From assembly GCA_965216755.1 (NCBI GenBank), contig CBDCGL010000011.1, positions 1,152,001 to 1,216,000 on the forward strand: a stretch of DNA of 64,000 bases. The letters are read 5' to 3'. This document shows positions 20,847 through 59,396 of this stretch, piece by piece (the stretch's first letter is position 1; each line of letters starts with the position of its first letter). Both the position numbers and the translations under genes were made by a program. The notes below the pieces were generated by a model, which had not been told where the DNA came from, searched no databases, and was given only the letters and a program-made list of their open reading frames with translations. This DNA comes from Alphaproteobacteria bacterium (GTDB taxonomy: Bacteria; Pseudomonadota; Alphaproteobacteria; UBA7887).

Positions 20847-20860
20847 GGGGCGACCAAACC

Positions 20861-21886: not shown

Positions 21887-22722
21887 TGATGTCGCCAATC
21901 ACCCGACAAAGTGTCGGCGCTCTGTTCGTTCTATTGGTCCTGGCCGGCTTTACGTCGAGCGACATGGCTTACGAGGCGATCCCGCGTGGCAATGAATTTT
22001 ATGCCATTGGCGAATACAGCGCGGCGGCTGAACAATATGCGATCGCGGCGGCCGGACTGCCCGATAAACCCGAGATTCGCTTCAATCAGGGTGCTGCGTT
22101 CTTCAAATTGCATGACAACACCAAGGCCGTCGAACACTTCGCGCTGGCGTTGGGTGCCGACGACACAAAGCTACAGGCGCAGGCTCGCTATAACATCGGC
22201 AATGTCCGTTACGAAATCGCGCTCATTTCCATGAACACCTATCAAGACGCGGTCACGCCACTCAAGGAGGCGATTGGTCACTATCGCGATGCCCTGAGCC
22301 TCGATCCGGGATTCGAAGACGCAAGATACAATTTGGAGCTCGCCCACCGATTGCTTAAGCAGCTCCAGGATCAGAACGTGTTGCCTCAACCCAATCCTGA
22401 GATTCGCAATCAGCAAGCATCCCAGAATCGCGGCCAGACTTTTGATGACGATTCGGTCACGGACCGTGCCACAGAGGAAGACGCAGAGCGCGGCGATTCA
22501 GACGAACCACAAGGTCAACAGGGTGAACAGACAGGCAGTCAAAGCGGCCAATCAAGCACCCAAGCCGAAGCACCCAAAGCAGCCTCTCAGCAAGAACTTT
22601 CGCCGCAAGAGGCGGAACAGATGGTTGATATCATTCGCAATCGCGCACGCGCGGCCCAAGAAAAACGGGACCAATGGCGACAAGCACGTATGCGCGAGGC
22701 GAAGGTTGAAAAGATTTGGTAG
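21886..22722 (+). CDS. TPR protein with Gln-rich tail (BatC/MxaK-like)
   Basis: ARYNIGN, DARYNLELA TPR motifs, Q/E-rich low-complexity tail, C-terminal EKIW; stop-start overlap with upstream gene. Confidence 0.85.
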   Translation: MMSPITRQSVGALFVLLVLAGFTSSDMAYEAIPRGNEFYAIGEYSAAAEQYAIAAAGLPDKPEIRFNQGAAFFKLHDNTKAVEHFALALGADDTKLQAQARYNIGNVRYEIALISMNTYQDAVTPLKEAIGHYRDALSLDPGFEDARYNLELAHRLLKQLQDQNVLPQPNPEIRNQQASQNRGQTFDDDSVTDRATEEDAERGDSDEPQGQQGEQTGSQSGQSSTQAEAPKAASQQELSPQEAEQMVDIIRNRARAAQEKRDQWRQARMREAKVEKIW

Positions 22723-23788: not shown

Positions 23789-24229
23789 CTATCGGGTCCA
23801 GCGGGCGCCTTCAATCGCCAAGGTCTCCAAATACGCGCCGATCTGGTTGATCTCTTCCTCGGTCAAAACTCCACCCCACGGCGGCATCTGCTTTTTCGTG
23901 CGGCCATTCAGCACAACGATCATGTATTCTGGGTAGCCGCGCCAAAACTTCCGCAAATCGGCCGCGTATTTGCCAAATCTTGATTCCCCGTTGGCCTGGG
24001 CGCCGTGACAAGCCGCACACCACTTGAAATACAATCCCAAACCGGCCTCGATGGCCTCTTCGTTGCCCGCCAGGGGGTTCGCGTCAGGATACGCATCCGC
24101 CGGATCGTCGGCCGCCATCGCCTGAGAACCTGATAGACCCGAAATCACCACAATAGCGGCTGTCAAAAAAATGCCGCACGCAACACGCGCGGACCAAGAC
24201 TTCGTCGTCACGCCCAAACTCCTTAGCAT
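23789..24229 (-). CDS. Monoheme c-type cytochrome, likely electron acceptor of the PQQ dehydrogenase
   Basis: Signal peptide, NPLAGNEEAIEAG, CAACH, distal QMPPW. Confidence 0.92.
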   Translation of the reverse strand: MLRSLGVTTKSWSARVACGIFLTAAIVVISGLSGSQAMAADDPADAYPDANPLAGNEEAIEAGLGLYFKWCAACHGAQANGESRFGKYAADLRKFWRGYPEYMIVVLNGRTKKQMPPWGGVLTEEEINQIGAYLETLAIEGARWTR

Positions 24230-24323: not shown

Positions 24324-26096
24324 CTAGTTGAGAGCAAACCCAATAATCGCGGAACTTTCTTGATAGTTAACCAGCTTGTCTTTGTTCAAGCTGTCAACCG
24401 CACGGCCAACATATGAACCATGGCCAGATGCAACCGCGACAAATTGCTTGCCGTCGACCGCATACGACACGATGCCGCCATTGTGACCGGACCCATTGTT
24501 GAAGCTCCACAGCACATCACCGGTGTTGCCGTCGATCGCTTCGACGAAACCGTCGGTGGTGGCGTTGAACAGCAGGCCACTGCCCGTGGTCATCAGCGCC
24601 GAGTGCGGGATAACTTCGTAGCGTTTTTCCCAAGCCAACTCACCAGTCACAGGATTACGCGCGGTGATGAAGCCATGGGTCGTGTCGCCCGGAGGATTGG
24701 TGCCGATCCATTCGGCGGCCATGAAGGCTTGTGCAAACGGCTCGGTGGTTCGCGATTCCGAACCGGCCGTAATCGTCGTGCCGCCCTCTTTCGGCTGCAC
24801 GGTCAACCACATGCACCATTCCTGCGCGACGCGATAGAACAGGCCGGTGACCGGGCTATATGCGCCGGCGTTCCAGCTGTGACCACCGTCGATCGCCGGG
24901 CATACCAGAGTCTTCTCGCCAGCTTTCGGCCACAACATGTTTTCCCACTGGCCGGTCTCAAGGTTGAAGCCGGTGGTCCAGTTATAGGATTTCATGTCCG
25001 GATAGACGTTCACCGGCTGGCCGGTGGCGCGGTCGTGGACATGGTTGAAGCCATTCTTACCCGGATGCAGAACGAGTTTCCGGCCGTCGTCACCCTCGAT
25101 CATGACATATTCGCCCGGTGCGGCGTCATAGTCATAGGGATCGCTTGGGGCTTCTTGGAAATACCAATTCAGCTTACCGGTATCGAGATCCAGCGCGATG
25201 GTTGACGAGGTGTATAGATTGTCACCCGGCCGCCAGGCGTCGGTGTTTGGATCGCGGCAGGTATCGCCGCAATAGTCATAGTCGGGGTTCGGGTTGCCGG
25301 TGCCGATAAAAATCTGGTTGTTCTCATAGTCAACCGTGCCCGGTTGCCAAGAACCACCGCCGCCATACTTCCACGAATCGCCGCCCCACGTTGCGAGCGC
25401 TTCCGGATCGTCACGTCCGGTGGTGGAGAACGTCCACTTGACATCGCCATTGTTCGGATCGATGCCGTAGATCAAACCCTCAACCGGATACTCACCGCCG
25501 TTCATGCCCATAACCAGCAGGTCTGAGCTGACAAAGGTTGCCGCGCCGCTAAAGCCTGCTGTCAGAGTGGCGGAATCGACGATTTGCTTATCCCAAATGA
25601 CTGAACCGTCGTTTTCGTCAAGTGCGGCAATGCGACCATCGGCCGTGCCCATGTAAACCCGACCATCGCCAATGGAGAGGCCGCGCGCATGCGCAAAGAA
25701 CGACCTTGACACAACGGCTTCATCCATCTCAGGCACCCAGGCCCAAAGACGTTCGCCGGTCGCTGCGTCAATTTTCCAAACGGTCGACGGGTTGGTGGCG
25801 ATATACATGGCGCCATCGACGACCACGGGCGTGCTGTGCAAGCCCATACGGACTTCACCCGGCTGGAAGATCCAGGCCGGCCGCAGATTCTGCACGTTAT
25901 CGGCGTTGATTTGATCCAACGGGCTATGACGCCACGCCTTATCCACCGACCGATGATACGCACACCAGTTCTCCGCGGGACAATTCTTGATGTTCTCCGC
26001 GGATGAGTCAGCCAATGCGGCCGGCGCCGAGTAGAACCCGGCGGCCGCAACCACGCAAGCCGATGCTAGTAGCTGTTTATCCAGCCTAAATGGCAT
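24324..26096 (-). CDS. PQQ-dependent alcohol dehydrogenase-like quinoprotein (lanthanide-type motif)
   Basis: Signal peptide, RHSPLDQINADNV.NL, TPVVVDG, GGEY, GGGSWQ, GTGNPNP, PGDNLYT, DPYDYD; GGAGG RBS. Confidence 0.92.
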   Translation of the reverse strand: MPFRLDKQLLASACVVAAAGFYSAPAALADSSAENIKNCPAENWCAYHRSVDKAWRHSPLDQINADNVQNLRPAWIFQPGEVRMGLHSTPVVVDGAMYIATNPSTVWKIDAATGERLWAWVPEMDEAVVSRSFFAHARGLSIGDGRVYMGTADGRIAALDENDGSVIWDKQIVDSATLTAGFSGAATFVSSDLLVMGMNGGEYPVEGLIYGIDPNNGDVKWTFSTTGRDDPEALATWGGDSWKYGGGGSWQPGTVDYENNQIFIGTGNPNPDYDYCGDTCRDPNTDAWRPGDNLYTSSTIALDLDTGKLNWYFQEAPSDPYDYDAAPGEYVMIEGDDGRKLVLHPGKNGFNHVHDRATGQPVNVYPDMKSYNWTTGFNLETGQWENMLWPKAGEKTLVCPAIDGGHSWNAGAYSPVTGLFYRVAQEWCMWLTVQPKEGGTTITAGSESRTTEPFAQAFMAAEWIGTNPPGDTTHGFITARNPVTGELAWEKRYEVIPHSALMTTGSGLLFNATTDGFVEAIDGNTGDVLWSFNNGSGHNGGIVSYAVDGKQFVAVASGHGSYVGRAVDSLNKDKLVNYQESSAIIGFALN

Positions 26097-26579
26097 TAGA
26101 AGTTTCCTCCCGCATAAGTGCCAGTCAGCCTTGTTGGGTAAACGGCCCAATCAAGGCAAGGGTGATGGCACGTGGCCTCACACATGGCCGCGTGCCACCA
26201 AATGCCGGTCGTCTGGAGAGGATTGACGCTCTGCTCTCGATGGTTTCGATCGTCAACGCGCAAATACCAACTCTGCAGGCGCAGTGCATACCCAATCTCT
26301 TGCTCGCACCAAAACTGTTTTGGTGCCCACAAGCACGACACAAGGTCGCGTATTAGGGACTAGAACCTCTTGTCCGATAAACCGGCAACCGACGGAAAGC
26401 TCGCTCAATCCGTCAAGCTACCGATAATGATGAACAAAGATCTGGTTACGGTCAATCAAAGTTGTACGCTACCAGCCAAGTGTGGCTTGCATTGCACGAA
26501 GGCGATAATCCAAAGGTCGTGCCACACTTTTCCCGCGACCCGGGTTTCGCGGGACCATCGTCAAAACGCGGCAGCGCGC

Positions 26580-29690: not shown

Positions 29691-32600
29691 ATGACGGCGG
29701 TCGAAAGTTGGCTCGATAGTCTGGGGCTGCGCATTTACGCGGACATGTTTGCACGCGCCGATGTCGAGCTTGATCTTGTTCCAGGTCTGAGCGACGTCGA
29801 CCTAAAGGAGTTGGGTGTCGCGAGCCTCGGTCATCGCAAGCGAATTCTGGCCGCCGCAAAACGACTAAAGGATCAGGACGCGCTGATCCAAGACATTGCA
29901 AGCGGGACGACCGCCCCAACCGAGCATGCTCGGGAGACAGACGATCAACCTCAGGCGACGCCTTCGCCCGCCATATCGTCAATCGGCTTTGAACATTCTG
30001 ACGGCGAACGTCGCCAATTGACCGTGATGTCGTGCGATATCGCGAACGCGCTGGCCATGGGCACACGGTCTGACCCTGAGGACCTCCAACACCTTGTCAG
30101 CGTGTTTCAGAGCGTTGTGGGTGAGGTCATCTCACGGCATACGGGTTATGTCGCCCAATTTCAGTCAGGCGGTGCCCTAATCTATTTTGGTTGGCCAGAA
30201 GCGCACGAGGACGATTGCGAGCGTGCCATTCGCGCCGCGATCGACGTTGTCGAATCGCTCAATGGTGCAGGATCATCCGCAAGTCTGGATGTGCGGATCG
30301 CAATCGCCACCGGCATTGTTGTCGTCGGTCGGGCCGATCACGGACTCGGCGGTGGGCCCGATGTTGCGGTTGGGGAAGCGCCGAATTTGGCGGCCCGTTT
30401 GTTGGATTTGGCCAACGCCAACGAAATCGTTATCGCCGCAACCAGCCATCGGTTGGTCGGTCGGGCCTTCCAATACGCGGATCTGGGTGCGCAGTTTGTC
30501 GAAGGCTTCTCAGCACCTTTGCGGGCCTACAAAGTTTTGGGGCTTGGCCATGTTGGTGGCCGCTTTCAGGCAACACGCGCGACCGCGCTGACCCCGTTTG
30601 TCGGACGTCAATCGGAAATTGGAATATTACACCAACGCTGGGAGATGGCCCGCGAGGGCGATGGCCAATTGGTGACGATCGCAGGTGAACCGGGCATTGG
30701 AAAATCAAGGATCATCGAGCAGTTGCGCGCGGACATCGACGACGAGTCGCATCTTGTGGAGCAATATCAATGCTCCCCCAATCGTACCGACACACCGCTG
30801 CACCCATTCATCGATAGCATTGTTCGCGGGGCGCGGCTGGAACACGAGGAATCACCGCATGTCGCGATCACCAAATTGGAACGATTCGTCAAGGGCGTTG
30901 GCCTCCCGCCAAAGGTGACTTTGCCGGTCGTTGCGGGCTCTTTGGGCTTGGCCGATGAAATCGGCGGCGCGGCCGCGGGCGCCGGCAGGATGAAGAGTTT
31001 GCGACAAGCCCTGACCGACGCCATGGTCCAGCGTGGTCTCGATATCGCCGCCAAGACGCCCCTGCTTCTTGTTATTGAGGACGCGCACTGGATAGATCCG
31101 TCAACGGAGGAAACGGTCGGCCGTTTCATCGAACACGCGCGCGACGCACGGGTCATGATTGTGATTACGTTTCGGCCCGAATATCGGGGTCGGCTGACAG
31201 ACTTCGATCATGCCACGCGACTGGTGATTGGCAGGTTGGGTCGTCGCCACGCATCCGGACTGCTGCGGCACGTCTGTGGCGAGCGGCCACTGCCCGAGGT
31301 CGTATCACAACAGATCGTCGCCCGCGCGGACGGTATCCCGCTTTATGTGGAAGAACTCGTCAGAACCGTCTTGGACAGCGATTTGCTGACTGAGCGCAAC
31401 GGTGCGCTCGAGCTTGCCGGCCCGCTGCCAGAGTTCGCGATCCCGACGACGTTGCAGGATTCACTTATGGCGCGGCTCGACCGATTGGCGCCCGTGAAAG
31501 ACCTAGTGCAAATAGGCGCGTGCATCGGCCGCCGATTCAGCTACGACTTGTTGGCGGCTGTCGCGCCACTTCACGGCGAGGCACTGGACGATGCACTGGC
31601 GCAAATCACCGACAGCGGCCTTATCTTTGAGAGTGGAGCCCCACCCGACTCGAGCTACACGTTTCGCCACACACTGGTCCAAGAAGCGGCATATGATTCC
31701 CTTCTCACCAGCCGACGCCAGCAGATCCACGCCACTATTGCCAGGGCTATCGAGCAGAAATCTGGGCATATATTGGACGGCGAACCAGAGCTGGTCGCCC
31801 AGCACTACGCCGCCGCCGGACTCCCGGATCGCGCTGTGCCCTACTGGCTGCGCGCGGGCGAACTCGCCACGGAACGGTCCGCAAATGTCGAGGCTATCCG
31901 ACACCTGAAACGCGGACTGGCGCTGCTTGAAGCACTCCCCGTTTCGGAAGAACGCGACCGGCTTGAATTGCGTCTACAAACGGCGTTGAGCACGCCGCTT
32001 ATCGTCGCCAAAGGGTTTGCCGCCGACGATACGGCGCGTGCCCAAACACGGGCGCGCGCGCTTACCGATAAGCTTCAGGACACAAGACTGTCTTTCCCCG
32101 CGCTATACGGCCAATGTGTTTTTCATACGGTGCGTTCGGAACATCGGCGCGGCCAAGACGTCGCGCGCGAGTTCTTGGACTTGGCGAACGCAAAAGGCGA
32201 AGCTGGATCTAGGCTTGTCGGCCATCGCATCATGGGCTTGACGGACATTTACCTTGGTGCGCCGGCGTCCGCCGTGCGCCACCTTGAGAAAGCGCTGTCC
32301 CTCCACGATCCGGACGCGCATGGCGGCATGGCGTTTCACTATGCGCAGGATCCGAAAGTCGCGACACTCGCTCTGTTGTCGTGGGCCTACTGGCTCGTTG
32401 GTCGTTTTTCAGACTCGATTGGCGCATCGACCGAGGCCCTGGCCGGTGCACGTGCCATGGGTCATAGCCACACTCTCGCCTATGCCTTGTTTCACGCCGG
32501 TATTCTGCCGAACTACTTACGGCGCGACGTGGACTCGGTCGAGAAATGCGCCCGAGAGCTCGTAGATGTTTGCGATCAAGACGATATCGTTACGTGGCGC

Positions 32601-33128
32601 CCATTTGGTCAAGCCGCCCTGGGTTGGATCGACATTCTTCGCGGGGAGGCGAACGAGGGTATCGCACAAGTACAGCAAGTGCTGACCGCGCGGCAGGTAA
32701 CGACCGCAACATTCAATAGCACGTTCTTGCACGCGTTGATCGCCGAGGGTTACACACAAACTGATCGTCCCGACCGCGCTTTGAAAACGCTGGACGCGGC
32801 GCGCGCCTTCACTGCCGATACCGCGGAAGGTTGGCTTCGGTCCGAGCTCGCCCGTATGACCGCCGATGCGCTGAGACTCTTGCCCGACACAACGCTGTCT
32901 GATGTCGAGCAAAAGCTTTGCCATGCCGTGGACACCGCATACAAACAAGACGCGTACGCATTTGCGCTGCGTGCCGTCGCCGCGCTGGCGGAACATTGGC
33001 ATGATCGGGATGACGACCAAAGAGCCGCCGACTTGCTTCGGCCCATTGTCGCCCGGTTCGGCGAAGAAAGGACCTTGACCGAAGACCTCCGCCACGCAAG
33101 ATCTTTGCTCGATCAACTGCGCCGCTAG
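29691..33128 (+). CDS. SAM + class III cyclase-like + AAA ATPase + TPR protein
   Basis: SAM WLDSLGL...LKELGV.SLGHRKRIL; GERRQLTVM.CD; GEAPNLAARL; PFVGR; Walker A GEPGIGKS; IEDAHWID. Confidence 0.9.
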   Translation: MTAVESWLDSLGLRIYADMFARADVELDLVPGLSDVDLKELGVASLGHRKRILAAAKRLKDQDALIQDIASGTTAPTEHARETDDQPQATPSPAISSIGFEHSDGERRQLTVMSCDIANALAMGTRSDPEDLQHLVSVFQSVVGEVISRHTGYVAQFQSGGALIYFGWPEAHEDDCERAIRAAIDVVESLNGAGSSASLDVRIAIATGIVVVGRADHGLGGGPDVAVGEAPNLAARLLDLANANEIVIAATSHRLVGRAFQYADLGAQFVEGFSAPLRAYKVLGLGHVGGRFQATRATALTPFVGRQSEIGILHQRWEMAREGDGQLVTIAGEPGIGKSRIIEQLRADIDDESHLVEQYQCSPNRTDTPLHPFIDSIVRGARLEHEESPHVAITKLERFVKGVGLPPKVTLPVVAGSLGLADEIGGAAAGAGRMKSLRQALTDAMVQRGLDIAAKTPLLLVIEDAHWIDPSTEETVGRFIEHARDARVMIVITFRPEYRGRLTDFDHATRLVIGRLGRRHASGLLRHVCGERPLPEVVSQQIVARADGIPLYVEELVRTVLDSDLLTERNGALELAGPLPEFAIPTTLQDSLMARLDRLAPVKDLVQIGACIGRRFSYDLLAAVAPLHGEALDDALAQITDSGLIFESGAPPDSSYTFRHTLVQEAAYDSLLTSRRQQIHATIARAIEQKSGHILDGEPELVAQHYAAAGLPDRAVPYWLRAGELATERSANVEAIRHLKRGLALLEALPVSEERDRLELRLQTALSTPLIVAKGFAADDTARAQTRARALTDKLQDTRLSFPALYGQCVFHTVRSEHRRGQDVAREFLDLANAKGEAGSRLVGHRIMGLTDIYLGAPASAVRHLEKALSLHDPDAHGGMAFHYAQDPKVATLALLSWAYWLVGRFSDSIGASTEALAGARAMGHSHTLAYALFHAGILPNYLRRDVDSVEKCARELVDVCDQDDIVTWRPFGQAALGWIDILRGEANEGIAQVQQVLTARQVTTATFNSTFLHALIAEGYTQTDRPDRALKTLDAARAFTADTAEGWLRSELARMTADALRLLPDTTLSDVEQKLCHAVDTAYKQDAYAFALRAVAALAEHWHDRDDDQRAADLLRPIVARFGEERTLTEDLRHARSLLDQLRR

Positions 33129-36493: not shown

Positions 36494-37378
36494 CTATTGG
36501 CCTGTGAGCTGACGCGACGGCGCACGAGACAGAAACTCAAGGATCGCGCTGTTGCGATTTGGCCATTTCGTGTGTGGACCCTCTCCCTCACAATAGAGCG
36601 TCTCCACGCCACCCTCGCAGTTTTCGTAAGCGACACAACTTTCCGCGTTACGCGGGCGCGGTTCGCCATCGCATTTGTTGCAGGCGGCCCACCATGCCGC
36701 CGTTTCCGCGCCCAAGCCGGGAAACAAACGATCGTCGCGACTGTGCAGGACCATCACTGATGTAGGGTCCGGGCAAGACTGATTAGCAAGATCGTCGCCG
36801 CCCAGCCCGGCCGCGCTGGGCGCGATTGCCGCCGCCGCGATCGGCGACTCCTCGAGAAACGTGAGAGCATTGGAGACCAGGCCGCCATTCGAATGGCCGG
36901 TCATGAAAACACGGGTTCGATCGATACACCAATCGTCGGCCACGAGATTCGGAATTCGGCCGAGCGCTAGGATACTCTCGACCGACATTTCCGCATCGTC
37001 AGCAAACGCCACGATAAATCCGGCCGCCGTCGCTTGCCGGGTAATTCCAAGCAACCTTTCAGACGCGGCGCGGCTGCGACCACCCGGTGCATAGACCATC
37101 AACAACGGATGCGCTACATCCGCACGATAGTTGCCGGGCGCACGCACGCTGTATCCAAACCCACTCGGCGACTGAAGATCATTGGTCGCACCACCCCGCC
37201 CCACGCGCCCAGCAGAGTCACAAACACCAATTGATGTTTCGGCAGGGTAGTCGTGTTCCGCCGGCTGATCGCGGCGGCGCGCGTCTTCGACCGCAAGCCG
37301 TTGCCAGGCCAAATAAATCACGACGGCCGCGACGAAACCCGCCATCCAAACAACGTTTGACGACACCCTAAGTTTCAT
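36494..37378 (-). CDS. PHB-depolymerase-like (LpqC/LpqP) esterase, membrane-anchored
   Basis: N-terminal TM, WCIDRTRVFMTGHSNGG nucleophile elbow, HSRDD, WAACNKC, H..W. Confidence 0.82.
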   Translation of the reverse strand: MKLRVSSNVVWMAGFVAAVVIYLAWQRLAVEDARRRDQPAEHDYPAETSIGVCDSAGRVGRGGATNDLQSPSGFGYSVRAPGNYRADVAHPLLMVYAPGGRSRAASERLLGITRQATAAGFIVAFADDAEMSVESILALGRIPNLVADDWCIDRTRVFMTGHSNGGLVSNALTFLEESPIAAAAIAPSAAGLGGDDLANQSCPDPTSVMVLHSRDDRLFPGLGAETAAWWAACNKCDGEPRPRNAESCVAYENCEGGVETLYCEGEGPHTKWPNRNSAILEFLSRAPSRQLTGQ

Positions 37379-37511
37379 CGGCCGACGATGGCGCCACTAT
37401 TGCGCGCAAGAGAATTCGCGCGAATCACACCGCCACGACCGCGCGCGCCGCGCAGGTCCGCCCCGCCTAGCCAAAGCCATGCAGAATTCTGTGGGTCTTG
37501 CAGCCGCACAT

Positions 37512-37588
37512 TGCAACGCAGCATTACGTCGTGAACATCCTCAGACATCGGCTAAATCAATGAAGATTGTCGATATTGCAGTGCAGAA
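37512..37588. promoter_or_regulatory. Two PhaR-box-like sites in the divergent promoter region between the esterase and pmoC
   Basis: TGCAACGCAGCA (37512-37523) and TGCAGTGCAGAA (37577-37588), both preceded by AT. Confidence 0.45.
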
Positions 37589-37775
37589 TGACGCGATTTA
37601 GCAAGATTAAAGCGCGTCTGCTATCGGACATAACAAGGGCCAAGACGCTTGAACAGGATCAAAATCTTGTGACAACATGACCTGAAAGCCAACATGGTTA
37701 TGAATAATAAGAACAAGTCGCAATTGGCGAGGACGCCAACTTCGGACAAATGGTTGAAAGATTCATGGGGACAAA

Positions 37776-38576
37776 GTGATGGCCGTAACAGCAGAACTTA
37801 GAACGGCAGAACAGGTACGCGCCGAATCCGCCTCGTCGGATGACAGCATGTCGGTGAGTGGATTGATTCCATGGCAACCCATTCTTCTTTTTGTCGCCAT
37901 CGTGACAACCGCCATGATCGGCGTGCGCATTTACCAGCAGATATTTGGCTGGACCGCGGGCCTCGACTACTTCGAACCCGAGTTTCAGACCTACTGGATG
38001 AATTTCTTGTATGGCGAATGGATCTTGGAAGCGGTCTTGGCAACCACGATTTGGGGCTACATTTGGATGACCCGCGATCGTGACCTAGCCAACCTATCGC
38101 CACGCGAGGAGCTGCGTCGCTATTTCAGGGCAGTCGCGATGATCTTTGCGTACGTCTTTATCATCTATTGGACCGGCAGTTTCTTCGCCGAACAAGACGC
38201 ATCATGGCACCAAGTGGCGATCCGCGATACCGATTTCACGCCGAGCCACATCCCGCTGTTCTACCTAACGATGCCCCTTTACGTCATCTTTGGCGTGGCG
38301 GCGTTTTTATATGCGCGGACGCGTCTGCCGGAATTTGCCAACAGAATCTCCGTGCCCTTCGTCATTGGAGTTGCCGGGCCGTTCCTCATTCTGCCAAATC
38401 TGGGCTACAACGAGTGGGGGCACACATTCTTTTTCATGGAAGAGCTGTTTGCTGCGCCAATTCATTGGGGATTTGTCGTCCTCGGCTGGTCGGCGCTGGC
38501 ATTGGGCGGGTTACTTCTGCAGTTGCTTCGGCGCATGGTCGAGTTGACAAACATCAACGCCACTGAGCAACCATAG
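37776..38576 (+). CDS. pmoC: Copper membrane monooxygenase subunit C (PmoC/AmoC family)
   Basis: GLDYFEPEFQTYWM, RDRDL..LSPREELRR, SFFAEQDASWHQ..IRDTDFTPSH, LPN.GYNEWGHTF.FMEELF.APIHWGFV. Confidence 0.97.
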   Translation: MMAVTAELRTAEQVRAESASSDDSMSVSGLIPWQPILLFVAIVTTAMIGVRIYQQIFGWTAGLDYFEPEFQTYWMNFLYGEWILEAVLATTIWGYIWMTRDRDLANLSPREELRRYFRAVAMIFAYVFIIYWTGSFFAEQDASWHQVAIRDTDFTPSHIPLFYLTMPLYVIFGVAAFLYARTRLPEFANRISVPFVIGVAGPFLILPNLGYNEWGHTFFFMEELFAAPIHWGFVVLGWSALALGGLLLQLLRRMVELTNINATEQP

Positions 38577-38727
38577 ACGTCAAACTTATCCAGCAGGATT
38601 GGTGGGAATCATGACGGAGGCGGTCGATGGTGGCGCGCCTCCATTTGATTCTGAAACGCCGGCCGGCGCCAATTCCGCCGAGAAAAAGATAACAGGCACG
38701 ACTGAAGACAAGGGGTAGGATTAGACC

Positions 38728-39483
38728 ATGGCTGTCACGGAATCCACGCCAACGTCGGCCATTCGGAACGCCGACGAGCAGCACAGAACTGAGGTTGCTT
38801 TTGATGTGTTGGCCATCCCAACGATCGCGATCGTTCTCCTGGCCGCGTTTCATCTGCATTTCATGCTAACCGCCGGCGACTGGGATTTTTGGACCGATTG
38901 GAAAGATCGCCGCTGGTGGCCCCTGATCACGCCAATCACCCTGATCACATTTCCGGCGGCGGTACAATATCTTCTATGGTCCAAGTTCCGCATCCCATTC
39001 GGCGCCACGGTCTGCATTGTGCTGATCACGATCGGCATGTGGATCAGTCGTAGCGTGCAGTTCGTCGGTTGGGCATATTACCCGATGAGTTTCGTTTGGC
39101 CGGCCATGTTTATACCGATGGCGCTCGTGCTCGATTCCGTGTTGGTGCTGACAAGAAGTTACCTGCTCACCGGCATCTTCGGCGGTTTCATATGGGCTGT
39201 GGTCTTCTATCCAGCGAACTGGGCGATATTAGCCCCCTATCATTTGCCCATTGAGTTGCACGGCGTGCTGATGACCCTGGCGGACCTGCAGGGTTACATG
39301 TATGTGCGAGCGGGCACACCTGAGTACATTCGGATCATCGAAGAAGGAACCCTGCGCACATTTGGCGAACATGTCACACCGATCACGGTATTCTTTGCCG
39401 CCTTCGTGTGCATTCTTATGTATTTCTTGTGGAATCGTATCGGCGCGTTCTTGGCTCGAACGACCTGGGTGAAGAGGGTATAG
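38728..39483 (+). CDS. pmoA: Copper membrane monooxygenase subunit A (PmoA/AmoA family)
   Basis: HLHFMLTAGDWDFWTDWKDRRWW, TFPAAVQ, PFGAT, FYPANW, GYMYVRAGTPEYIRIIEEGTLRTFG. Confidence 0.97.
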   Translation: MAVTESTPTSAIRNADEQHRTEVAFDVLAIPTIAIVLLAAFHLHFMLTAGDWDFWTDWKDRRWWPLITPITLITFPAAVQYLLWSKFRIPFGATVCIVLITIGMWISRSVQFVGWAYYPMSFVWPAMFIPMALVLDSVLVLTRSYLLTGIFGGFIWAVVFYPANWAILAPYHLPIELHGVLMTLADLQGYMYVRAGTPEYIRIIEEGTLRTFGEHVTPITVFFAAFVCILMYFLWNRIGAFLARTTWVKRV

Positions 39484-39487
39484 AGCC

Positions 39488-40747
39488 ATGAAACATCCAC
39501 AGGTAAGCCCAGCGGGCCGCTTCGGACTGTTCACATTGGCGGCCATCGTGGCTGTTCTGAGTATCGCTTGGAGCGCGCCGGTCGGCGCGCATGGTGAAAA
39601 AGCGCAAGAAGCGTTTCTGCGCATGCGTAGCTTGCATTGGTTCGATACGGAGATTTCGCCGCGCCAGGGCTCTATCAACGACATAGTCACGGTAACAGGC
39701 AAATTCCGGACCTCAAAGGCATGGCCCATGGCCATTGCCCAGCCCGACGTGGCGTTTCTCAACATTGGGGTCCCGGGTCCAATGTTTGTGCGCTTGGAGT
39801 CGTTCATCAACGACGTCAATATGGTGAATTCGACCAAATTCGAATTGGGCGCCACATACGAATACAAAGTGGTGTTGAAAGCACGGCGCCCCGGACGCTT
39901 TCACATCCACCCCCTGATGAACATTCAGGACGCCGGCCCGTTGGTCGGACCCGGCGTGTGGGTTGACATCGCTGGCGATCCCGCACACTTCAAGCATGAA
40001 GTGACGGCCCTTACGGGCGACGTCGTCGATTTGGAAACCTATGGCCTCGCCAACGTTGTTCGTTGGCACGCGCTGTGGTTCGTTATCGGCGCGGCATGGC
40101 TCGTGTATTGGCTGTTCTTTAAAGGTCGCTTGTTGTTGCCGCGCTATCGGAAAGTTGCGATGTTGGGCGATGATGCCGATAGCATGATCACGCCGATGGA
40201 CCGCCGATTTGCGCTCGGGCTATTGGCGGCGACGTTGACAATCACTGCGTTCGGCTTCTATTGGGCGGACGCAAAGTATCCCGTGACCGTGCCACTGCAA
40301 ACCGGCCGCGTCATCGTTCCGCCGTTGCCGGAACCGGATGCAACCGTCGATCTCAAATTGAAAGAGGCGAAATACGAGATCCCCGGCCGGCGGCTAACAA
40401 TCCAAACGACGATCACCAACGACACCGACAACGGCGTGCAGGTTGGAGAGTTTGCCACGGCGAACGTGCGTTTTATCAACGACGCAGTGCTCGATATACA
40501 ACCGATCGATTCACATGATTTGGTTGCGCCCAGTGGGTTGCGCATTGAGGGTGGCCCAATTCCGGCAGGTGAAAGCCGGGCGATTACATTGATCGCTGAG
40601 GATGCTTTGTGGGAGACGCATCGTCTGTCGCGGCTGATCTATGACCCAGATAGCCGCTTTGCGGGTCTCGTGTTCTTGTACGACGATCAAGGCAATCGCT
40701 CGGTTGTTGAGGTCGAAGGACCGATGCTGCCCACTTTTTCGATGTAA
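39488..40747 (+). CDS. pmoB: Copper membrane monooxygenase subunit B (PmoB/AmoB family)
   Basis: Signal peptide then HGEKAQEAFLRMR, LKARRPGRFHIH, GP..GPG.W, VDLETYG, VPLQTG, GEFATANVRF, LIYDPDSRFAG. Confidence 0.97.
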   Translation: MKHPQVSPAGRFGLFTLAAIVAVLSIAWSAPVGAHGEKAQEAFLRMRSLHWFDTEISPRQGSINDIVTVTGKFRTSKAWPMAIAQPDVAFLNIGVPGPMFVRLESFINDVNMVNSTKFELGATYEYKVVLKARRPGRFHIHPLMNIQDAGPLVGPGVWVDIAGDPAHFKHEVTALTGDVVDLETYGLANVVRWHALWFVIGAAWLVYWLFFKGRLLLPRYRKVAMLGDDADSMITPMDRRFALGLLAATLTITAFGFYWADAKYPVTVPLQTGRVIVPPLPEPDATVDLKLKEAKYEIPGRRLTIQTTITNDTDNGVQVGEFATANVRFINDAVLDIQPIDSHDLVAPSGLRIEGGPIPAGESRAITLIAEDALWETHRLSRLIYDPDSRFAGLVFLYDDQGNRSVVEVEGPMLPTFSM

Positions 40748-40786
40748 CGTGACCGGTCGCACCGGCGACACAAGGAGGAACGGCCT

Positions 40787-41398
40787 GTGGCAAGATTCCT
40801 GACTGCCGCCCTTGTTGTTTTGTTTTGCTTAAATTGGCACACTGAGGCGGTGCGCGCGCATGGTGGTGTGTCGATCGAAGATGACATGTGTGTGCTTACG
40901 GCTGGGATTTATCGCGCGCATTTTACTGGTTATCAGCCGAGCAAGCGCGGCGCCCAAGAATTTTGCGAAGATATCCCAGAGGTAAGCCGAGCAATTATTG
41001 TCTTGGACTATATCGACCGGAAAATGCGCGAGTTGTCGGTTGACTTCCGAATCATTGTTGACGCGCAAAGTATTGGCAACACCGCAACATATGCGGATTT
41101 GGGGACCGAAGACGATATTCAAAAAAACACGATTTTCTATAAGGAAGCGGAGGTCTACAAAGCTGGTACGATCACCGTTGAATACGACTTTGATACGGCA
41201 GGCCAGTATATTGGCATCTTGACGGGGATCGATGACGATTTAGGCGAAACCTATATATCCGTGTTTCCGTTCTCGGTCGGTGTCACGTCTTATGCCACAT
41301 ATGTCCCCGTGGCGCTGGGCATTGTGGCGTTCATCGGCTTAATCTACTACTTCTCCGAACGAAAAAAGCGGCAGGACGCGCAGCGAAAGACGGCCTGA
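40787..41398 (+). CDS. pmoD: PmoD/AmoD-family periplasmic copper protein with C-terminal TM anchor
   Basis: Signal peptide then HGG, DMC...HFTGYQP...EFCEDIP; immediately after pmoB. Confidence 0.8.
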   Translation: MARFLTAALVVLFCLNWHTEAVRAHGGVSIEDDMCVLTAGIYRAHFTGYQPSKRGAQEFCEDIPEVSRAIIVLDYIDRKMRELSVDFRIIVDAQSIGNTATYADLGTEDDIQKNTIFYKEAEVYKAGTITVEYDFDTAGQYIGILTGIDDDLGETYISVFPFSVGVTSYATYVPVALGIVAFIGLIYYFSERKKRQDAQRKTA

Positions 41399-41474
41399 TG
41401 TTGCGAGCCGCCGGTTCAAGTCGTGTGCACAATGCTGGTCGTGCTGCCGCCTGTTATGGGGTGAAGGGTCATTC

Positions 41475-43169
41475 GTGAGACTCCTAGTCCTCTTTCTGAC
41501 CGCACTCTTTCTGGGGGCAGTAGCCATTTTGCTCTCCCCGCCAAGCTTGTGGCCTGAAGGTTTCCGGTCATTTTACCACGCGACATTTGGTGAATTTGCT
41601 TATCGCGCGCCACCACCAAGCTTAGCCAGCAGCACCGATGAACCAGAAGCGCCTTGTGACGGTCACGATGCGTCTTGGCGCAAATCCCAGACCATCGACG
41701 GTGTTGAGATTGAGGCGTCTCTGGCCTGTAACCCAGATAATCCCGCCGCGGTGGCGTCTTTCGTGAGGGGTACGAACAACGTCTCGCACATGACGTTGAT
41801 GGAAACGCAGCTGGCACCGGACGCAGTGATCAAAGACAACGACCGCGACGGCGATGGTGACCCGGACGAAATCCACATACGCCTGGAAGTCGTCGAATTG
41901 AATGGCGGGTCACCGGATCACAACCAGCTCGTACCGGCCTATGCCATCGCGCCGGGTGTACAACCGGGGTTTTGGGTCTTCGCGCCGAAAACACGTGGCA
42001 TGGCAACGGATAACCTTGAGGACCTGATCGCGAACCGCCTATTGCGCGTGCCATCACCGGTCATTCGCATCGAGAAAGGCGACGATGTCCATATCACGCT
42101 GGAAAATACCCACTACATGCCGCACACGATCCACTTTCACGGTGTCGATCACCCGTATATCGATGCGAATGGCGAAGGCAATGATGGAGTCCCACAAACC
42201 AGCGAAAAGCCAGTTATGCCCGGTGAAAGCCGCACCTATGACATGAGCCCCCGACAGACCGGTTCAATGTTCTATCACTGCCACGTTCAGCCCGACGTCC
42301 ATATCCTGATGGGATTGCAGGGCATGTTTGTGATCGAAGACGCGCGCGCCAACAATTGGGTGCAAACCCTGAACGTCGGCGCGGGTCAAGTTCGACAACG
42401 GTCTGTCGCTAGCCATCAATCGTATGATCGCGAGTATGACCTGCACTATCAGGATATTGACCGAGAGCTGCATGAGCTTATCCAAGTTTCGAACGATCCG
42501 CGCCTGATCATCAAAGACGCGCACCGCGCTTACGATGTTACGGAGCGCACGGCCGACTACTTCATGCTCAATGGTCGCTCGTTTCCGTACACCTTTCGCG
42601 AATCTCTGGTGGTCGTACGGCCCAATGAGGACGTCAAACTACGCGTCGCCAATGGCGCGGCCGAGGGCATCGCCTTACATACCCACGGTCACAAAGTCAC
42701 GATCACGCATTATGACGGTGTCGAACATAATCCCGCGGCACAAATCACGCGCGATGTGGTCAGCATTAGCCCCGCCCAACGAGTCGATCTGTTGCTGGAC
42801 ACGACCGATGACGGCCTGCACAGCTATGGTGAAGGTGTTTGGCTGATGCACGACCATCGGGAAGTTGGCATCACAACGGACGGGATCAGTCCGGGCGGCA
42901 ATGTCGCAGCCATCGTTTATGAAAGCTTTCTGGACGAGAACGCCTGGCCAAGAACACAGGGCGTCGATTGGTCGTCGTTCTTCACGCCAGAATATTACGC
43001 ACGGCAATTGCCAGTTTGGCTTTCGTATGATCTGCGCGGCGTCCTTGGCGACACGGCGGCAGGCCCCCTTCTCACAGTTCGCATTATTCTGTTTGCGATC
43101 GCCATTGGCCTGCTCGTCGGTGTCATCATCTTGATCCTGCGCGATGTTCGGACGCGCAGTGGACAGTAA
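41475..43169 (+). CDS. Membrane-anchored two-domain multicopper oxidase
   Basis: HTIHFHG, YHCHVQPDVHILMG (T1 in domain 1), LHTHGH, WLMHDH; hydrophobic N- and C-termini. Confidence 0.88.
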   Translation: MRLLVLFLTALFLGAVAILLSPPSLWPEGFRSFYHATFGEFAYRAPPPSLASSTDEPEAPCDGHDASWRKSQTIDGVEIEASLACNPDNPAAVASFVRGTNNVSHMTLMETQLAPDAVIKDNDRDGDGDPDEIHIRLEVVELNGGSPDHNQLVPAYAIAPGVQPGFWVFAPKTRGMATDNLEDLIANRLLRVPSPVIRIEKGDDVHITLENTHYMPHTIHFHGVDHPYIDANGEGNDGVPQTSEKPVMPGESRTYDMSPRQTGSMFYHCHVQPDVHILMGLQGMFVIEDARANNWVQTLNVGAGQVRQRSVASHQSYDREYDLHYQDIDRELHELIQVSNDPRLIIKDAHRAYDVTERTADYFMLNGRSFPYTFRESLVVVRPNEDVKLRVANGAAEGIALHTHGHKVTITHYDGVEHNPAAQITRDVVSISPAQRVDLLLDTTDDGLHSYGEGVWLMHDHREVGITTDGISPGGNVAAIVYESFLDENAWPRTQGVDWSSFFTPEYYARQLPVWLSYDLRGVLGDTAAGPLLTVRIILFAIAIGLLVGVIILILRDVRTRSGQ

Positions 43170-43171
43170 CA

Positions 43172-44182
43172 ATGTTGCGACAAATAATCGTTGTCGGACT
43201 TGCTTTGTTGCCGTGCATCACCGCACCGGTCGAAGCACAACAAGAGACCGGCGCCGACGCGCAGAGTGACGATGGCGGCGTGACCGTGCCCGCCATGCTC
43301 AATGCGATTTCGCCGGACGGGGATAACGTCAACGTAACACATGGTCCCATTCCGGATATCGGTTGGCCGGCCATGACCATGGATCTGGGCCTGGGGCCAG
43401 ACGCCGAGATCGGCACTTTGGGACCCGACGATCCGGTCATGATGACGTTGGACCGCGATGAACAAGGCATGTACCGGATTCGGGAACTTCGCGCGGGCGA
43501 CGACCTCGAAGCCTCGACGGTCGAGGCGCTCCAGGCCGCGCGCGCGCGGACGGGCGGCGACGGCGGCGGCGACCATAGCGATCACCATGATCACGCCATG
43601 ACTATGGATATGGAAGGCATGGTCATGAACGAAAATGCCAACGAATTGCCCCAAGATTGCGCCGAAATCTCTGGAGACCACGAATTTGCGGTCCATGCTG
43701 GACACAAATACGCCCTGGCCCACGCCGGAACGATGTTCGGCTACGACCAAAACGTTTTTCGCGTGCCGGCATGTGCGCGCATCACGGTCACGCTCGTGAA
43801 CGACGACCAGATCCGACATCAGTGGATGGTGCACGGTCTGCCGCGCTACCTATATCAGCAAGGCATGTTCCACCTGGAGGCCGTCGGCGGCGCCCAAAAG
43901 ACAGGCACTTTCATCGTGCCAAGCACGCCACGTACGTATTTGATCCACTGCGATATCGCCCAGCACATGGAAATGGGCATGAAAGGGCAGCTCGTGGTCG
44001 CGGGTGGCGACGGCGATCTTCCTAGTATTCCCGGCGTATCGGGTGCGCGTCGACCGGACAATTACCGGCCGGGCGGATCGTCGTGGCGCATTGTCCTTGC
44101 GTGCGGCATCGCCGCCTGTGTCGCGGCGGCAATATTGGCCGTCGGTACGACTGTGACGAAGTCGCATCGGCGCGGTGGCTGA
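43172..44182 (+). CDS. CusF-like Cu(I) chaperone fused to a type-1 cupredoxin domain, C-terminal TM
   Basis: THGPIPDIGWPAMTM (H-x7-W-x2-M-x-M), linker DHSDHHDHAMTMDM, RHQW...HCDIAQHMEMGM. Confidence 0.85.
   Translation: MLRQIIVVGLALLPCITAPVEAQQETGADAQSDDGGVTVPAMLNAISPDGDNVNVTHGPIPDIGWPAMTMDLGLGPDAEIGTLGPDDPVMMTLDRDEQGMYRIRELRAGDDLEASTVEALQAARARTGGDGGGDHSDHHDHAMTMDMEGMVMNENANELPQDCAEISGDHEFAVHAGHKYALAHAGTMFGYDQNVFRVPACARITVTLVNDDQIRHQWMVHGLPRYLYQQGMFHLEAVGGAQKTGTFIVPSTPRTYLIHCDIAQHMEMGMKGQLVVAGGDGDLPSIPGVSGARRPDNYRPGGSSWRIVLACGIAACVAAAILAVGTTVTKSHRRGG

Positions 44183-58361: not shown

Positions 58362-59396
<1,035 letters not shown>

Follow-up and report, generated by a model that had tools for sequence, protein, structure and literature searches.

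The closest described relatives of the locus reported here are the particulate hydrocarbon monooxygenases (pHMOs) of marine Cycloclasticus, which PMC12510462 ties to short-chain alkanes through enrichment and proteomics on n-pentane, not through enzyme assays; the same paper lists one of the Cycloclasticus pHMO clades as 'unknown', and this may or may not be the sister clade described below. Copper membrane monooxygenases (CuMMOs) of the TUSC/Binatia type come from another phylum and are described in PMC8262859 and bioRxiv 10.64898/2026.02.02.703227. Extended pmo and amo operons (pmoCAB-pmoD-copC-copD-PCuAC and amoCABED) carry PmoD or AmoD directly after subunit B, with a signal peptide, two conserved cysteines and a C-terminal helix, and PMC6189053 divides the PmoD proteins into motif classes, including the CuA-forming Cx7MxHxnC, and mentions multicopper oxidase (MCO) genes near one of these classes only in passing. 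Orphan xmoCAB genes of unassigned function are also present in heterotrophic Proteobacteria, namely Skermanella, Bradyrhizobium sp. ERR11 and Solimonas aquatica, and the non-methanotrophs that carry them include a Rhodospirillales genus, according to PMC6215863.

The window analysed here is a stretch of 64,000 nucleotides from an alphaproteobacterium (GCA_965216755.1, contig CBDCGL010000011.1), in which a sequence-only reading had recognised a four-gene operon, xmoCAB and xmoD. The open reading frames bear out three intact subunit genes in C-A-B order, all on the plus strand and, counting through to xmoD, separated by 151, 4 and 39 bp: xmoC (37776..38576, 266 aa, GTG start), xmoA (38728..39483, 251 aa, identified by ORF, Pfam, NCBIfam and trees) and xmoB (39488..40747, 419 aa). 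Matches to the CuMMO Pfam families (AmoC, PF04896, E = 1.4e-96; AMO, PF02461, 2.8e-102; Monooxygenase_B, PF04744, 5.8e-138) show membership at scores far beyond chance, and the NCBIfam models AmoC/AmoA/AmoB_BACT and TIGR03078/80/79 are all exceeded at their curated cut-offs. A search of the genome found one copy each of xmoC, xmoA, xmoB and xmoD. Upstream of xmoC lies a 397 bp divergent intergenic region (37379..37775), presumed to hold the promoters of xmoC and of a hydrolase gene; a scan of it for consensus promoters and terminators gave nothing over shuffle expectation.

The copper sites were aligned to the numbered PmoB and PmoC chains in the PDB, and every ligand of CuB, CuC and CuD is present, as had been claimed for the locus. 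XmoC D141, H145 and H158 correspond to PmoC D156, H160 and H173 at CuC, and N212, H216 and H230 to N227, H231 and H245 at CuD; XmoB H35, H139 and H141 correspond to PmoB H33, H137 and H139 at CuB, and the mature PDB PmoB chain begins exactly at XmoB H35. The locus is a complete CuMMO operon, in which the C, A and B subunits are contiguous and intact and keep all copper ligands. In subunits, gene order and ligands it resembles the gamma-methanotroph pMMOs, that of Methylococcus capsulatus among them (1yew, 3rgb, 7s4h), but it differs at the bis-His site, where XmoB retains H48 and has Arg in place of H72.

[quoted passage not shown] It thus shares with the PmoD and AmoD of extended operons its place behind subunit B and its overall architecture. 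Both invariant cysteines align with 6cpd, and the pair is kept in 13/13 aligned homologues covering the region. Unlike the PmoD of extended operons, however, XmoD has an incomplete CuA ligand set: its motif is Cx9HxnC, with Arg at the Met49 position in the alignment to 6cpd, and assignment to the CuA-forming Cx7MxHxnC class was rejected. The operon surroundings also differ, in that xmoD is accompanied by genes for an MCO and a cupredoxin rather than for CopCD and PCuAC.

The four-gene extent does not hold, as the conserved unit spans 36494-44182 and comprises seven genes: an esterase, xmoC-A-B-D, a two-domain MCO and a cupredoxin. The first, an alpha/beta-hydrolase (esterase or PHB-depolymerase-like, 36494..37378, minus strand, 294 aa), is transcribed divergently from xmoC; it begins with a membrane anchor or signal, carries the nucleophile elbow GHS[ND]GG and is rich in Cys at its C-terminus. 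It matches the NCBIfam model of the scl-PHA depolymerase catalytic domain weakly (E = 5e-10, under the cut-off), and its nearest ESM Atlas clusters are named 'alpha/beta hydrolase family esterase' (0.98) and 'Poly(3-hydroxybutyrate) depolymerase family' (0.97). Homologues with 42-52% identity adjoin the xmo clusters of L001, L004-L008, L110, L111, L113 and L117, the serine motif is kept in 8/8 aligned homologues, and the hydrolase is co-conserved with xmo across three CuMMO clades.

Downstream of xmoD, a membrane-tethered MCO of 564 aa (41475..43169, plus strand; Pfam Cu-oxidase_3/_2/Cu-oxidase) has HxHG and HCHx4Hx4M motifs in its first domain and two HxH motifs in its second. Its top PDB matches are 2zwn, the metagenomic two-domain laccase mgLAC (1.1e-32), and then 3g5w (multicopper oxidase type 1, 7.1e-29), which we take to be the blue copper oxidase of N. 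europaea. The type-1 site (HCH...H....M) sits in the first cupredoxin domain, as in those two proteins, and on its motifs the MCO is a type C two-domain enzyme. It differs from those two in an extra N-terminal region of ~160 residues, in hydrophobic segments at its N and C ends, and in being encoded inside a CuMMO operon and not in a nirK cluster. All four copper-ligand motifs are present in 17/17 aligned sequences (HPHGQ in three being scored as HxH). The last gene (43172..44182, plus strand, 336 aa) encodes a protein in which a CusF-like Cu(I) domain (CusF_Ec, residues 39-107, 2.7e-14) is fused to a type-1 (blue) cupredoxin, with cupredoxin-type Pfam matches at residues 185-277 and, at the C-terminus, a transmembrane helix. 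Between residues 53 and 72 it has H, W, M and M at a spacing of +8, +11 and +13, which would match the ligand spacing of E. coli CusF. The H...C...H...M/L type-1 motif is found in 14/15 aligned homologues, the remaining one being cut by a contig end.

These genes travel with CuMMOs well beyond this genome. The order xmoD, MCO, cupredoxin follows xmoCAB at 5/5 alphaproteobacterial genome loci (at one alphaproteobacterial locus, L004, the contig stops inside the MCO, so that the cupredoxin is unseen), at 3/3 Binatia or 'delta' loci, and at L110-L114 and L117. MCO orthologues with 52-72% identity adjoin xmo or pmo genes in four CuMMO clades, and these four clades come out again in the MCO tree. 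Upstream of Methylococcales-type pmoCAB, an MCO-cupredoxin pair is present at 3/70 genome loci and 2/59 metagenome loci. The TUSC/Binatia loci have the same seven-gene content (XmoA 58-60%, MCO 61-62% and hydrolase 47-51% identical), but the hydrolase is downstream on the same strand. Cycloclasticus-labelled loci L111, L113 and L117 have the xmoCAB-D-MCO-cupredoxin order with a hydrolase nearby, whereas the cassette is absent from the long flanks of Cycloclasticus-type L122, L123 and L142, and the Cycloclasticus D proteins are without the His of the Cx9H motif. Among the aligned homologues, the CusF part of the cupredoxin is confined to the alphaproteobacterial clade, being absent in both Cycloclasticus and Binatia.

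XmoA and concatenated XmoCAB trees, built as quick IQ-TREE searches without named references for AOB AmoA, alpha-methanotroph PmoA, actinobacterial HMO, ET-HIRO/Haliea or Skermanella, place the enzyme consistently; the quick searches and the gaps in their references count against the hydrocarbon reading. In the XmoCAB tree (37 rows), a 7-row alphaproteobacterial clade (100, starred) is sister (99, starred) to a 6-row clade in which XmoA is 94-100% identical to proteins named Cycloclasticus sp. at NCBI, and lies outside a 15-row Methylococcales clade (100, starred). The XmoA tree (154 rows) gives the same sister grouping (SH-aLRT 94, not starred), with both clades apart from a 65-row Methylococcales PmoA clade (99, starred). 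XmoA is also not grouped with the 275-aa/Pxm-like set, which we take to be AmoA/Pxm on the strength of one name, Methylocystis hirsuta. XmoCAB is thus sister to, and not nested within, a clade from Gammaproteobacteria, the host here being alphaproteobacterial, and within the CuMMO tree it would fall on the 'hydrocarbon' side. XmoA shares 70-79% identity with proteins from Rhodospirillaceae- or Alphaproteobacteria-labelled MAGs of the same GTDB family, 59-63% with Cycloclasticus-labelled CuMMOs and 51-54% with Methylococcales PmoA.

The view that the proteins are not like classical pMMO or AMO therefore stands, with high identity to no characterised member of either. The proposal of a new lineage holds only in part: the lineage is uncharacterised, yet it is already in public MAGs, occurring in five genomes of the same family and on many metagenome contigs. 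Assignment as a methanotroph pMMO by PmoA clade was rejected on the Methylococcales clades of both trees and on lower scores against alpha-methanotroph PmoA chains, as was assignment as the AmoA of beta- or gamma-AOB or comammox, on lower AmoA scores and nearest relatives that are not nitrifiers. The best solved relatives are pMMO subunits of gamma-methanotrophs, Methylococcus included (XmoA 300, XmoC 292 and XmoB 403 bits), an observation that runs counter to hydrocarbon oxidation; for XmoA, gamma-type PmoA chains score 295-300 bits, three AmoA 260-270 and alpha-methanotroph PmoA 237-242. The Skermanella genes, placed inside a methanotroph/Nitrosococcus group in PMC6215863, differ from the Cycloclasticus-type enzyme here, a contrast of placements and not of directly compared sequences.

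We tentatively favour, with somewhat less than even confidence, a role for XmoCAB as a short-chain hydrocarbon monooxygenase. It would act in the membrane by hydroxylating a small hydrophobic compound, for which C2-C5 alkanes or alkenes are the likeliest candidates, and may co-oxidise methane and ammonia; the evidence suggesting C2-C5 alkane oxidation is the analogy to the Cycloclasticus pHMO. The alcohol product would pass to the periplasm and be oxidised by one of 12 PQQ alcohol dehydrogenases (PQQ-ADHs), and its carbon would enter central metabolism, with isocitrate lyase, which the genome encodes, available for C2 units. XmoD, the MCO and the CusF-blue-copper protein, all predicted to be membrane-tethered and periplasmic, would be accessories outside the substrate chemistry, because their cassette recurs with CuMMOs of four different clades; they may supply the enzyme with copper or pass electrons on to it. 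A substrate has been demonstrated for no member of the alphaproteobacterial clade nor, as far as established, of its sister clade.

The surroundings had been read as those of a heterotroph, and the host is a versatile heterotrophic alphaproteobacterium, which also encodes the alpha and beta subunits of a soluble di-iron monooxygenase. Of its PQQ-ADHs, 8 are above the TIGR03075 cut-off and 4 below, and six have the DYD motif typical of lanthanide-dependent XoxF/ExaF-type enzymes. The window had been described as free of mxaFI; two divergent PQQ-ADH genes (24324-26150 and 61738-63603) do lie within it. The PQQ-ADH 12 kb upstream of xmo has orthologues with 69-79% identity in 16/22 family genomes, is present in CuMMO-free genomes and is absent from two CuMMO-bearing ones (G003 and G015); it therefore has no specific link to xmo. 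Within the seven-gene unit there is no alcohol or aldehyde dehydrogenase gene, which, together with the missing link, is a point against hydrocarbon oxidation.

The window holds no hao, as had been noted, but an AOB-type haoAB is located ~90 kb downstream of xmo on the same contig. Compared with the HAO chains of Nitrosomonas europaea, HaoA, a protein of 604 aa with eight CxxCH, reaches 688 bits and retains the cross-linking Tyr467, and HaoB is over the TIGR04392 equivalog cut-off (285.6 vs 200), so that a haoAB pair with the cross-linking tyrosine, one mark of an AMO system, is present. The gene order is cytochrome b (b6-like), a 226-aa PEWY/CxxCH protein, haoA and haoB, and is kept in 9/9 relatives' loci as far as the available DNA extends. 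XmoCAB could then be the ammonia monooxygenase of a lithoheterotroph, giving hydroxylamine to HaoAB, with electrons reaching quinone through the cytochrome b6-like protein and a subunit-IV/cytochrome-c-like protein in place of cycAB, and with the MCO, whose second-best solved relative is 3g5w, and the blue-copper protein handling NO or nitrite or carrying electrons. The presence of haoAB in this genome, and of HAO in 4/5 CuMMO-bearing family genomes, also fits ammonia as the substrate and so counts against the hydrocarbon reading.

Several observations nonetheless make ammonia unlikely as the substrate. HAO is also found in 6 CuMMO-free family genomes, four of them 98-99% complete; 5/5 Binatia, 'delta' and Myxococcota genomes with the same xmo cassette show no HAO family match; and many of the organisms from which HAOs of this kind (52-60% identity) are named do not nitrify, among them Thioalbus, Hyphomicrobium, Methylocella and Rhodocyclaceae. 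The hao genes are distant from xmo, XmoA scores lower against AmoA than against gamma-type PmoA, and searches of the genome gave no NirK above its cut-off and no RuBisCO. The cycAB (c554, cM552) electron relay, an AOB criterion in PMC11135946, is absent beside hao, the sole c554-family matches being 386- and 680-aa ORFs 3.2 Mb away, and on the hao neighbours and the c554 family the AOB-style relay was set aside. If XmoCAB is a hydrocarbon monooxygenase, haoAB would remove or exploit hydroxylamine formed when the enzyme meets ammonia.

A methane monooxygenase of a facultative methane oxidiser, serving energy or limited assimilation, would agree with the gamma-methanotroph pMMOs as best solved relatives, the retained copper ligands and the six DYD-bearing PQQ-ADHs, and haoAB is also common in methanotrophs. 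Searches of the 99.82%-complete genome, however, found no RuBisCO large subunit, MCH (H4MPT) or RuMP HxlA; the host thus differs from gamma-methanotrophs in the H4MPT, RuMP and CBB markers searched, and on these markers neither a methanotroph host by C1 modules nor autotrophic CO2 fixation as in AOB was retained. Related TUSC-type Binatia CuMMOs are also reported, in bioRxiv 10.64898/2026.02.02.703227, from genomes without methanotrophic potential. Together with the position of the clade outside Methylococcales PmoA, at 51-54% identity only, this makes methane distinctly improbable. Another small molecule (acetone, cyclic or branched alkanes, halomethanes or organosulfur volatiles), whose ester or lactone product the conserved secreted esterase would process, would account for a co-conserved hydrolase that alkane oxidation leaves unexplained, and the CuMMO substrate range is still widening, a verrucomicrobial homologue being reported to use acetone (PMC8630023) and a Porticoccaceae enzyme methylated cycloalkanes (bioRxiv 10.1101/2022.11.07.515388), but nothing positive favours any particular substrate and the hydrolase family is broad, and we consider this quite doubtful.

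The unit is native to the genome in base composition, with a GC content of 56.5% against 59.1% for the genome (10th percentile of windows) and a tetranucleotide distance that is smaller than those of 62% of the 300 random windows compared; this composition test gives no sign of a chimeric contig. Deletion relics of the xmo unit are present in three relatives (G009, G010 and G006), which with the native composition fits old inheritance with loss, and not chimerism. The best explanation is that XmoCAB was inherited within one Rhodospirillaceae-labelled family and has been lost repeatedly there.

The xmoC-A-B-D run comprises four ORFs on the + strand, xmoC (37776–38576, 266 aa), xmoA (38728–39483, 251 aa), xmoB (39488–40747, 419 aa), and xmoD (40787–41398, 203 aa), with gaps of 151, 4, and 39 bp exactly as described in the sequence-only reading. 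XmoC, XmoA, and XmoB match the Pfam families AmoC, AMO, and Monooxygenase_B respectively (E values of 1e-96 to 1e-138), and exceed the curated cut-offs of the NCBIfam 'bacterial AMO' and TIGR 'CH4/NH3 monooxygenase' models. XmoD has no Pfam or NCBIfam match and is recognised by its similarity to the solved PmoD 6cpd (E 1.5e-12). Each of the four genes is single-copy in the 5.0-Mb, 99.8%-complete genome, in which no orphan xmoC or pmoD paralogue was found. Alignment of XmoC and XmoB to numbered PDB chains bears out the copper ligands proposed from motifs: XmoC D141/H145/H158 and N212/H216/H230 correspond to PmoC D156/H160/H173 (CuC) and N227/H231/H245 (CuD), and XmoB H35/H139/H141 to PmoB H33/H137/H139 (CuB), with the mature solved PmoB chain beginning exactly at the position of XmoB H35. 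At the non-conserved bis-His site XmoB retains H48 and has Arg in place of H72. AmoC residues D146 and E218 (PMC12804982) were considered as discriminators of AMO from pMMO and set aside, as M. capsulatus PmoC and XmoC share both. Scans gave three promoter-like sites, where 4.9 were expected, and 13 terminator-like sites for an expectation of 8.2±3.3; no transcript ends were assigned.

When the 57 long ORFs of the window were compared with the ten closest genome loci, only seven had common neighbours; the four-gene operon first proposed is thus present, but as part of a larger conserved unit. The additional members are a divergent (−) alpha/beta-hydrolase gene of the esterase/PHB-depolymerase kind (36494–37378), a multicopper oxidase gene (41475–43169, 564 aa), and a gene for a CusF-cupredoxin fusion (43172–44182, 336 aa). 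The genes flanking this unit are not common between genera in these ten loci. The best solved relatives of the oxidase are the two-domain enzymes 2zwn and 3g5w; its first domain contains HxHG and HCHx4Hx4M and its second cupredoxin domain two HxH motifs, and these copper motifs are kept in all 17 aligned sequences, with HPHGQ in three Binatia-type ones. In the fusion protein a CusF-like domain (Pfam, 2.7e-14), with a spacing of H, W, M, and M that we take to be that of E. coli CusF, is joined to a type-1 copper domain, an arrangement that among the aligned homologues is peculiar to the alphaproteobacterial clade. The GHS[ND]GG elbow of the hydrolase is conserved. Inspection by eye indicates that XmoD and the cupredoxin protein each have an N-terminal signal and a C-terminal hydrophobic helix, that the oxidase is hydrophobic at either end, and that the hydrolase has an N-terminal anchor. 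From this reading all four should face the periplasm and be tethered to the membrane holding XmoCAB.

PmoD proteins fall into motif classes defined in PMC6189053, which mentions multicopper oxidase genes near one class only in passing. The XmoD motif is Cx9HxnC with Arg at the position of Met49, from which XmoD should bind copper without forming a CuA site; Cycloclasticus-type D proteins differ in lacking the His of this motif. A separate copper locus elsewhere on the contig (G000:C11:2888500–2893042) contains a 428-aa multicopper oxidase-like ORF and two CusF-like segments, and at 27% and 41–43% identity is presumably an ordinary copper resistance locus unrelated to the xmo cassette.

XmoA is 69–79% identical to unnamed metagenome proteins and to five MAG loci labelled Rhodospirillaceae or Alphaproteobacteria, 59–63% to proteins named Cycloclasticus sp. 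by NCBI, 55–60% to proteins of Binatia, 'delta proteobacterium', and Myxococcota MAGs, and 51–54% to those of Methylococcales. Against solved chains it scores 295–300 bits with gamma-type PmoA, 260–270 bits with three AmoA chains, and 237–242 bits with alpha-methanotroph PmoA. In a 154-row XmoA tree (quick search, topology read by eye) the window lies in a starred ten-row clade of solely alphaproteobacterial or unnamed sequences, and this clade joins a larger grouping (SH-aLRT 94, not starred) that also takes in the Cycloclasticus clade and two small groups of unnamed sequences. The ten-row clade is separate from the 65-row Methylococcales clade (99, starred), in agreement with the earlier view that the subunit sequences are unlike a classical Methylococcus-type pMMO, and from a 33-row set that includes a cluster with a 250-aa Methylocystis hirsuta protein, which we take to be PxmA. 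In a concatenated XmoCAB tree of 37 rows (also a quick search read by eye), the alphaproteobacterial clade (100, starred) is sister (99, starred) to six metagenome loci whose XmoA sequences are 94–100% identical to Cycloclasticus-named proteins. Both trees were built without named AOB, alpha-methanotroph, actinobacterial, ET-HIRO/Haliea, and Skermanella references and do not fix the wider topology or the root; 50%-representative sequences were unnamed and mostly fragmentary and added only outgroups. The proposal of a new CuMMO lineage holds for a distinct clade, although one whose members are already deposited, generically named, in public MAGs.

Among the genomes examined, that of the window is the sole representative of its genus, and it was compared with 22 others of the same GTDB family. 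CuMMO genes are present in five of these, compared with none of 18 genomes representing as many other families of the class. The five match, in coordinates and identities, the loci labelled Rhodospirillaceae or Alphaproteobacteria, and on this the classing of the host as an alphaproteobacterium rests. The GC content of the module is 56.5% against 59.1% for the genome (10th percentile of windows); for tetranucleotide distance the module gives 0.122 and random windows 0.143±0.036, 62% of 300 being at least as deviant. On this native composition, and on the occurrence of the module in several genera of the family, we reject recent horizontal transfer and likewise a contig chimeric at the operon borders, a concern of the sequence-only reading. 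Oxidase orthologues are found in nine of the 22 family genomes, four of which have no xmoA. In genome G009 (98% complete; locus L192, G009:C13) xmoB is reduced to a remnant of 42 residues, xmoD is partial, the oxidase gene is interrupted by an internal TGA, and the cupredoxin gene is present; in G010 (L193, G010:C60) the hydrolase gene directly adjoins the 3′ half of that for the oxidase, so that whatever lay in between has been deleted; G006 (L190, G006:C25) keeps the oxidase gene and a 5′-truncated xmoD, and the 8 kb upstream of these contain no xmoCAB; and G016 has an oxidase orthologue without xmoA, but on a contig that ends there. Such relics in xmoA-less relatives indicate that the module is old in the family and has decayed independently several times. 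Elsewhere in the window, the best named relatives of a porphobilinogen synthase (HemB; 58377–59396, +) are of Planctomycetes type and from other MAGs (72–78%) rather than alphaproteobacterial, so that the protein says nothing on taxonomy; this type has possibly been transferred or is unusually conserved.

The D-oxidase-cupredoxin cassette follows xmoCAB in alphaproteobacterial loci, in all three Binatia or 'delta' loci, where the oxidase is 61–62% identical to that of the window (conservation on a par with XmoA), and in five Cycloclasticus-type metagenome loci; it is absent from three other Cycloclasticus-type loci with long flanks (L122, L123, and L142). D and cupredoxin genes are present in Myxococcota-type loci. 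An oxidase-cupredoxin pair with 52–54% identity to that of the window is also found immediately upstream of pmoC of the Methylococcales type, as seen for 3 of 70 genome loci (L068, L078, and L079) and 2 of 59 metagenome loci (L172 and L186). An oxidase tree from a careful search recovers the same four clades, with the relations between clades lacking resolution, from which we infer that the cassette has travelled together with its xmo operon. The enzymes that share it presumably differ in substrate, which favours a general function for the cassette, such as supplying copper or relaying electrons, and argues against a part in downstream substrate chemistry. We found no paper in the open-access literature describing this cassette, and a multicopper oxidase with pmoD and pmoCAB only in PMC6189053 and a Methylacidiphilum genome paper.

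As to substrate, we tentatively read XmoCAB as a short-chain hydrocarbon monooxygenase, whose alcohol product would pass to periplasmic quinoproteins and to which the cassette would supply copper or electrons. The position next to the Cycloclasticus pHMOs fits such an activity, these being expressed in n-pentane enrichments and associated with C2–C4 alkanes according to PMC12510462. It is also favoured by the lack of any H4MPT, RuMP, or CBB marker, as methenyl-H4MPT cyclohydrolase, hexulose-phosphate synthase, and the RuBisCO large subunit were not found in the 99.8%-complete genome, and by the character of the host, a hydrocarbon- and alcohol-oriented heterotroph. No NirK above its cut-off was found in the genome, and isocitrate lyase is present. 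The genome encodes 12 PQQ alcohol dehydrogenases, eight above and four below the methanol/ethanol family cut-off, and six have the DYD motif; among NCBIfam models only the general TIGR03075 was matched, which does not separate XoxF from ExaF. A soluble di-iron monooxygenase with beta-like and alpha-like subunits (G000:C11:250653–252551; Pfam Phenol_Hydrox, 211 and 243 bits) is predicted to be a second hydrocarbon or phenol oxygenase.

Two divergent PQQ alcohol dehydrogenases below the family cut-off are in the window (24324–26150, −; 61738–63603, +). Orthologues of the first (69–79% identical) occur in 16 of the 22 family genomes regardless of CuMMO status, and it was rejected as a dedicated CuMMO partner because they do not track CuMMO presence. 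It is followed by a c-type cytochrome gene (23789–24229, −) with weak similarity to PedF, and beside this pair is a Bat/aerotolerance-type string (16782–22722, +) of MoxR (AAA_3), DUF58, DUF4381, VWA/BatA, VWA, and TPR genes, which resembles the mxaRSACKL accessory set in domain content only. Two large proteins are also encoded in the window: one of 1439 aa (7267–11586, −) has an AAA_22/AAA_16 ATPase region at its N-terminus and a long array of ankyrin repeats at its C-terminus, unusual in a bacterium, and one of 1145 aa (29691–33128, +) is STAND/NLR-like, with a SAM (sterile alpha motif) domain at the N-terminus and an AAA_16 ATPase domain after it.

Ammonia is an unlikely substrate, kept alive by a four-gene haoAB-cytochrome b cluster (L109:8935–13180, equivalent to G000:C11:1284935–1289180, −) some 70 kb past the window end. 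The window itself is free of hao, as had been claimed, yet the same contig carries haoAB on the downstream side, about 90 kb from the module. HaoA, with its eight CxxCH motifs, reaches 688 bits against the HAO of Nitrosomonas europaea and retains the cross-linking Tyr, and HaoB exceeds the TIGR04392 equivalog cut-off. Whereas nitrifiers have cycAB with hao, the genes in that place here, upstream of haoAB, encode a cytochrome b6-like protein and a membrane protein of 226 aa that has a PEWY motif and a single CxxCH, and this order is retained in all nine loci of same-family relatives as far as these extend. The cluster looks like a hydroxylamine:quinone module using a Rieske-less split cytochrome b. 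However, HAO is present in ten of the 22 family genomes, four with and six without CuMMO, and one CuMMO genome has no HAO; five genomes of Binatia, 'delta', or Myxococcota that also have this xmo cassette gave no HAO match; and HAOs 52–60% identical to the one here are named from many non-nitrifiers. HAO and CuMMO are thus separable modules that happen to coincide in the window's genome. A few kb from hao (L109:335–3968, G000:C11:1276335–1279968) are genes for a TAT-signal FCSD/SQR-like flavoprotein, an FGE-sulfatase-domain protein, and a SoxY-like carrier.

Methane is a decidedly improbable substrate, although the enzyme is close to pMMO structures and the genome has candidate lanthanide-type dehydrogenases. 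We give similarly little credence to some other substrate, which would explain the conserved esterase as no other model does; the substrates of the related TUSC/Binatia CuMMOs are likewise not settled (PMC8262859; bioRxiv 10.64898/2026.02.02.703227), and orphan CuMMOs in heterotrophs have precedents (PMC6215863; bioRxiv 10.1101/2025.02.04.636526). Highly doubtful is the proposition that family members are lithoheterotrophic ammonia oxidisers, in which XmoCAB would oxidise ammonia, electrons from HaoAB would reach the quinone pool through a Rieske-less cytochrome b6/subunit-IV-cytochrome c module replacing cycAB, and the operon's oxidase and blue-copper protein would complete NO or nitrite chemistry or electron return; if true, this would be the first case of ammonia oxidation in Alphaproteobacteria, and its hydroxylamine-quinone redox module would be wired in a different way.

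The CuMMO enzyme family is known already, as is the presence of this clade in public MAGs under generic names. What appears to be new from these comparisons is a distinct family-level alphaproteobacterial CuMMO clade, a seven-gene architecture including the clade-specific CusF-cupredoxin fusion, and a host that also has an unusually wired haoAB; no open-access paper was found on CuMMO in alphaproteobacteria of the Rhodospirillales type, nor on amoCAB/haoAB in alphaproteobacteria other than methanotrophs. CuMMOs govern the first step of methane, ammonia, and short-alkane oxidation, and to our knowledge several clades have no known substrate and it is not settled which proteins load copper into pMMO and AMO, or deliver electrons to them, under physiological conditions. 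The single-copy operon, with a compact conserved cassette (PmoD homologue, two-domain oxidase, and blue-copper protein) and an esterase, is a favourable system, and its versatile heterotrophic host should be able to grow without it. Given a culture, existing or newly obtained, the accessory genes could be deleted individually without cell death, and such deletions are difficult in obligate methanotrophs and nitrifiers. Surveys of the environment should count pmoA/amoA-like reads from this clade neither as methanotrophs nor as nitrifiers, and the family-wide haoAB-cytochrome b cluster poses the question of hydroxylamine or ammonia oxidation in heterotrophic alphaproteobacteria.
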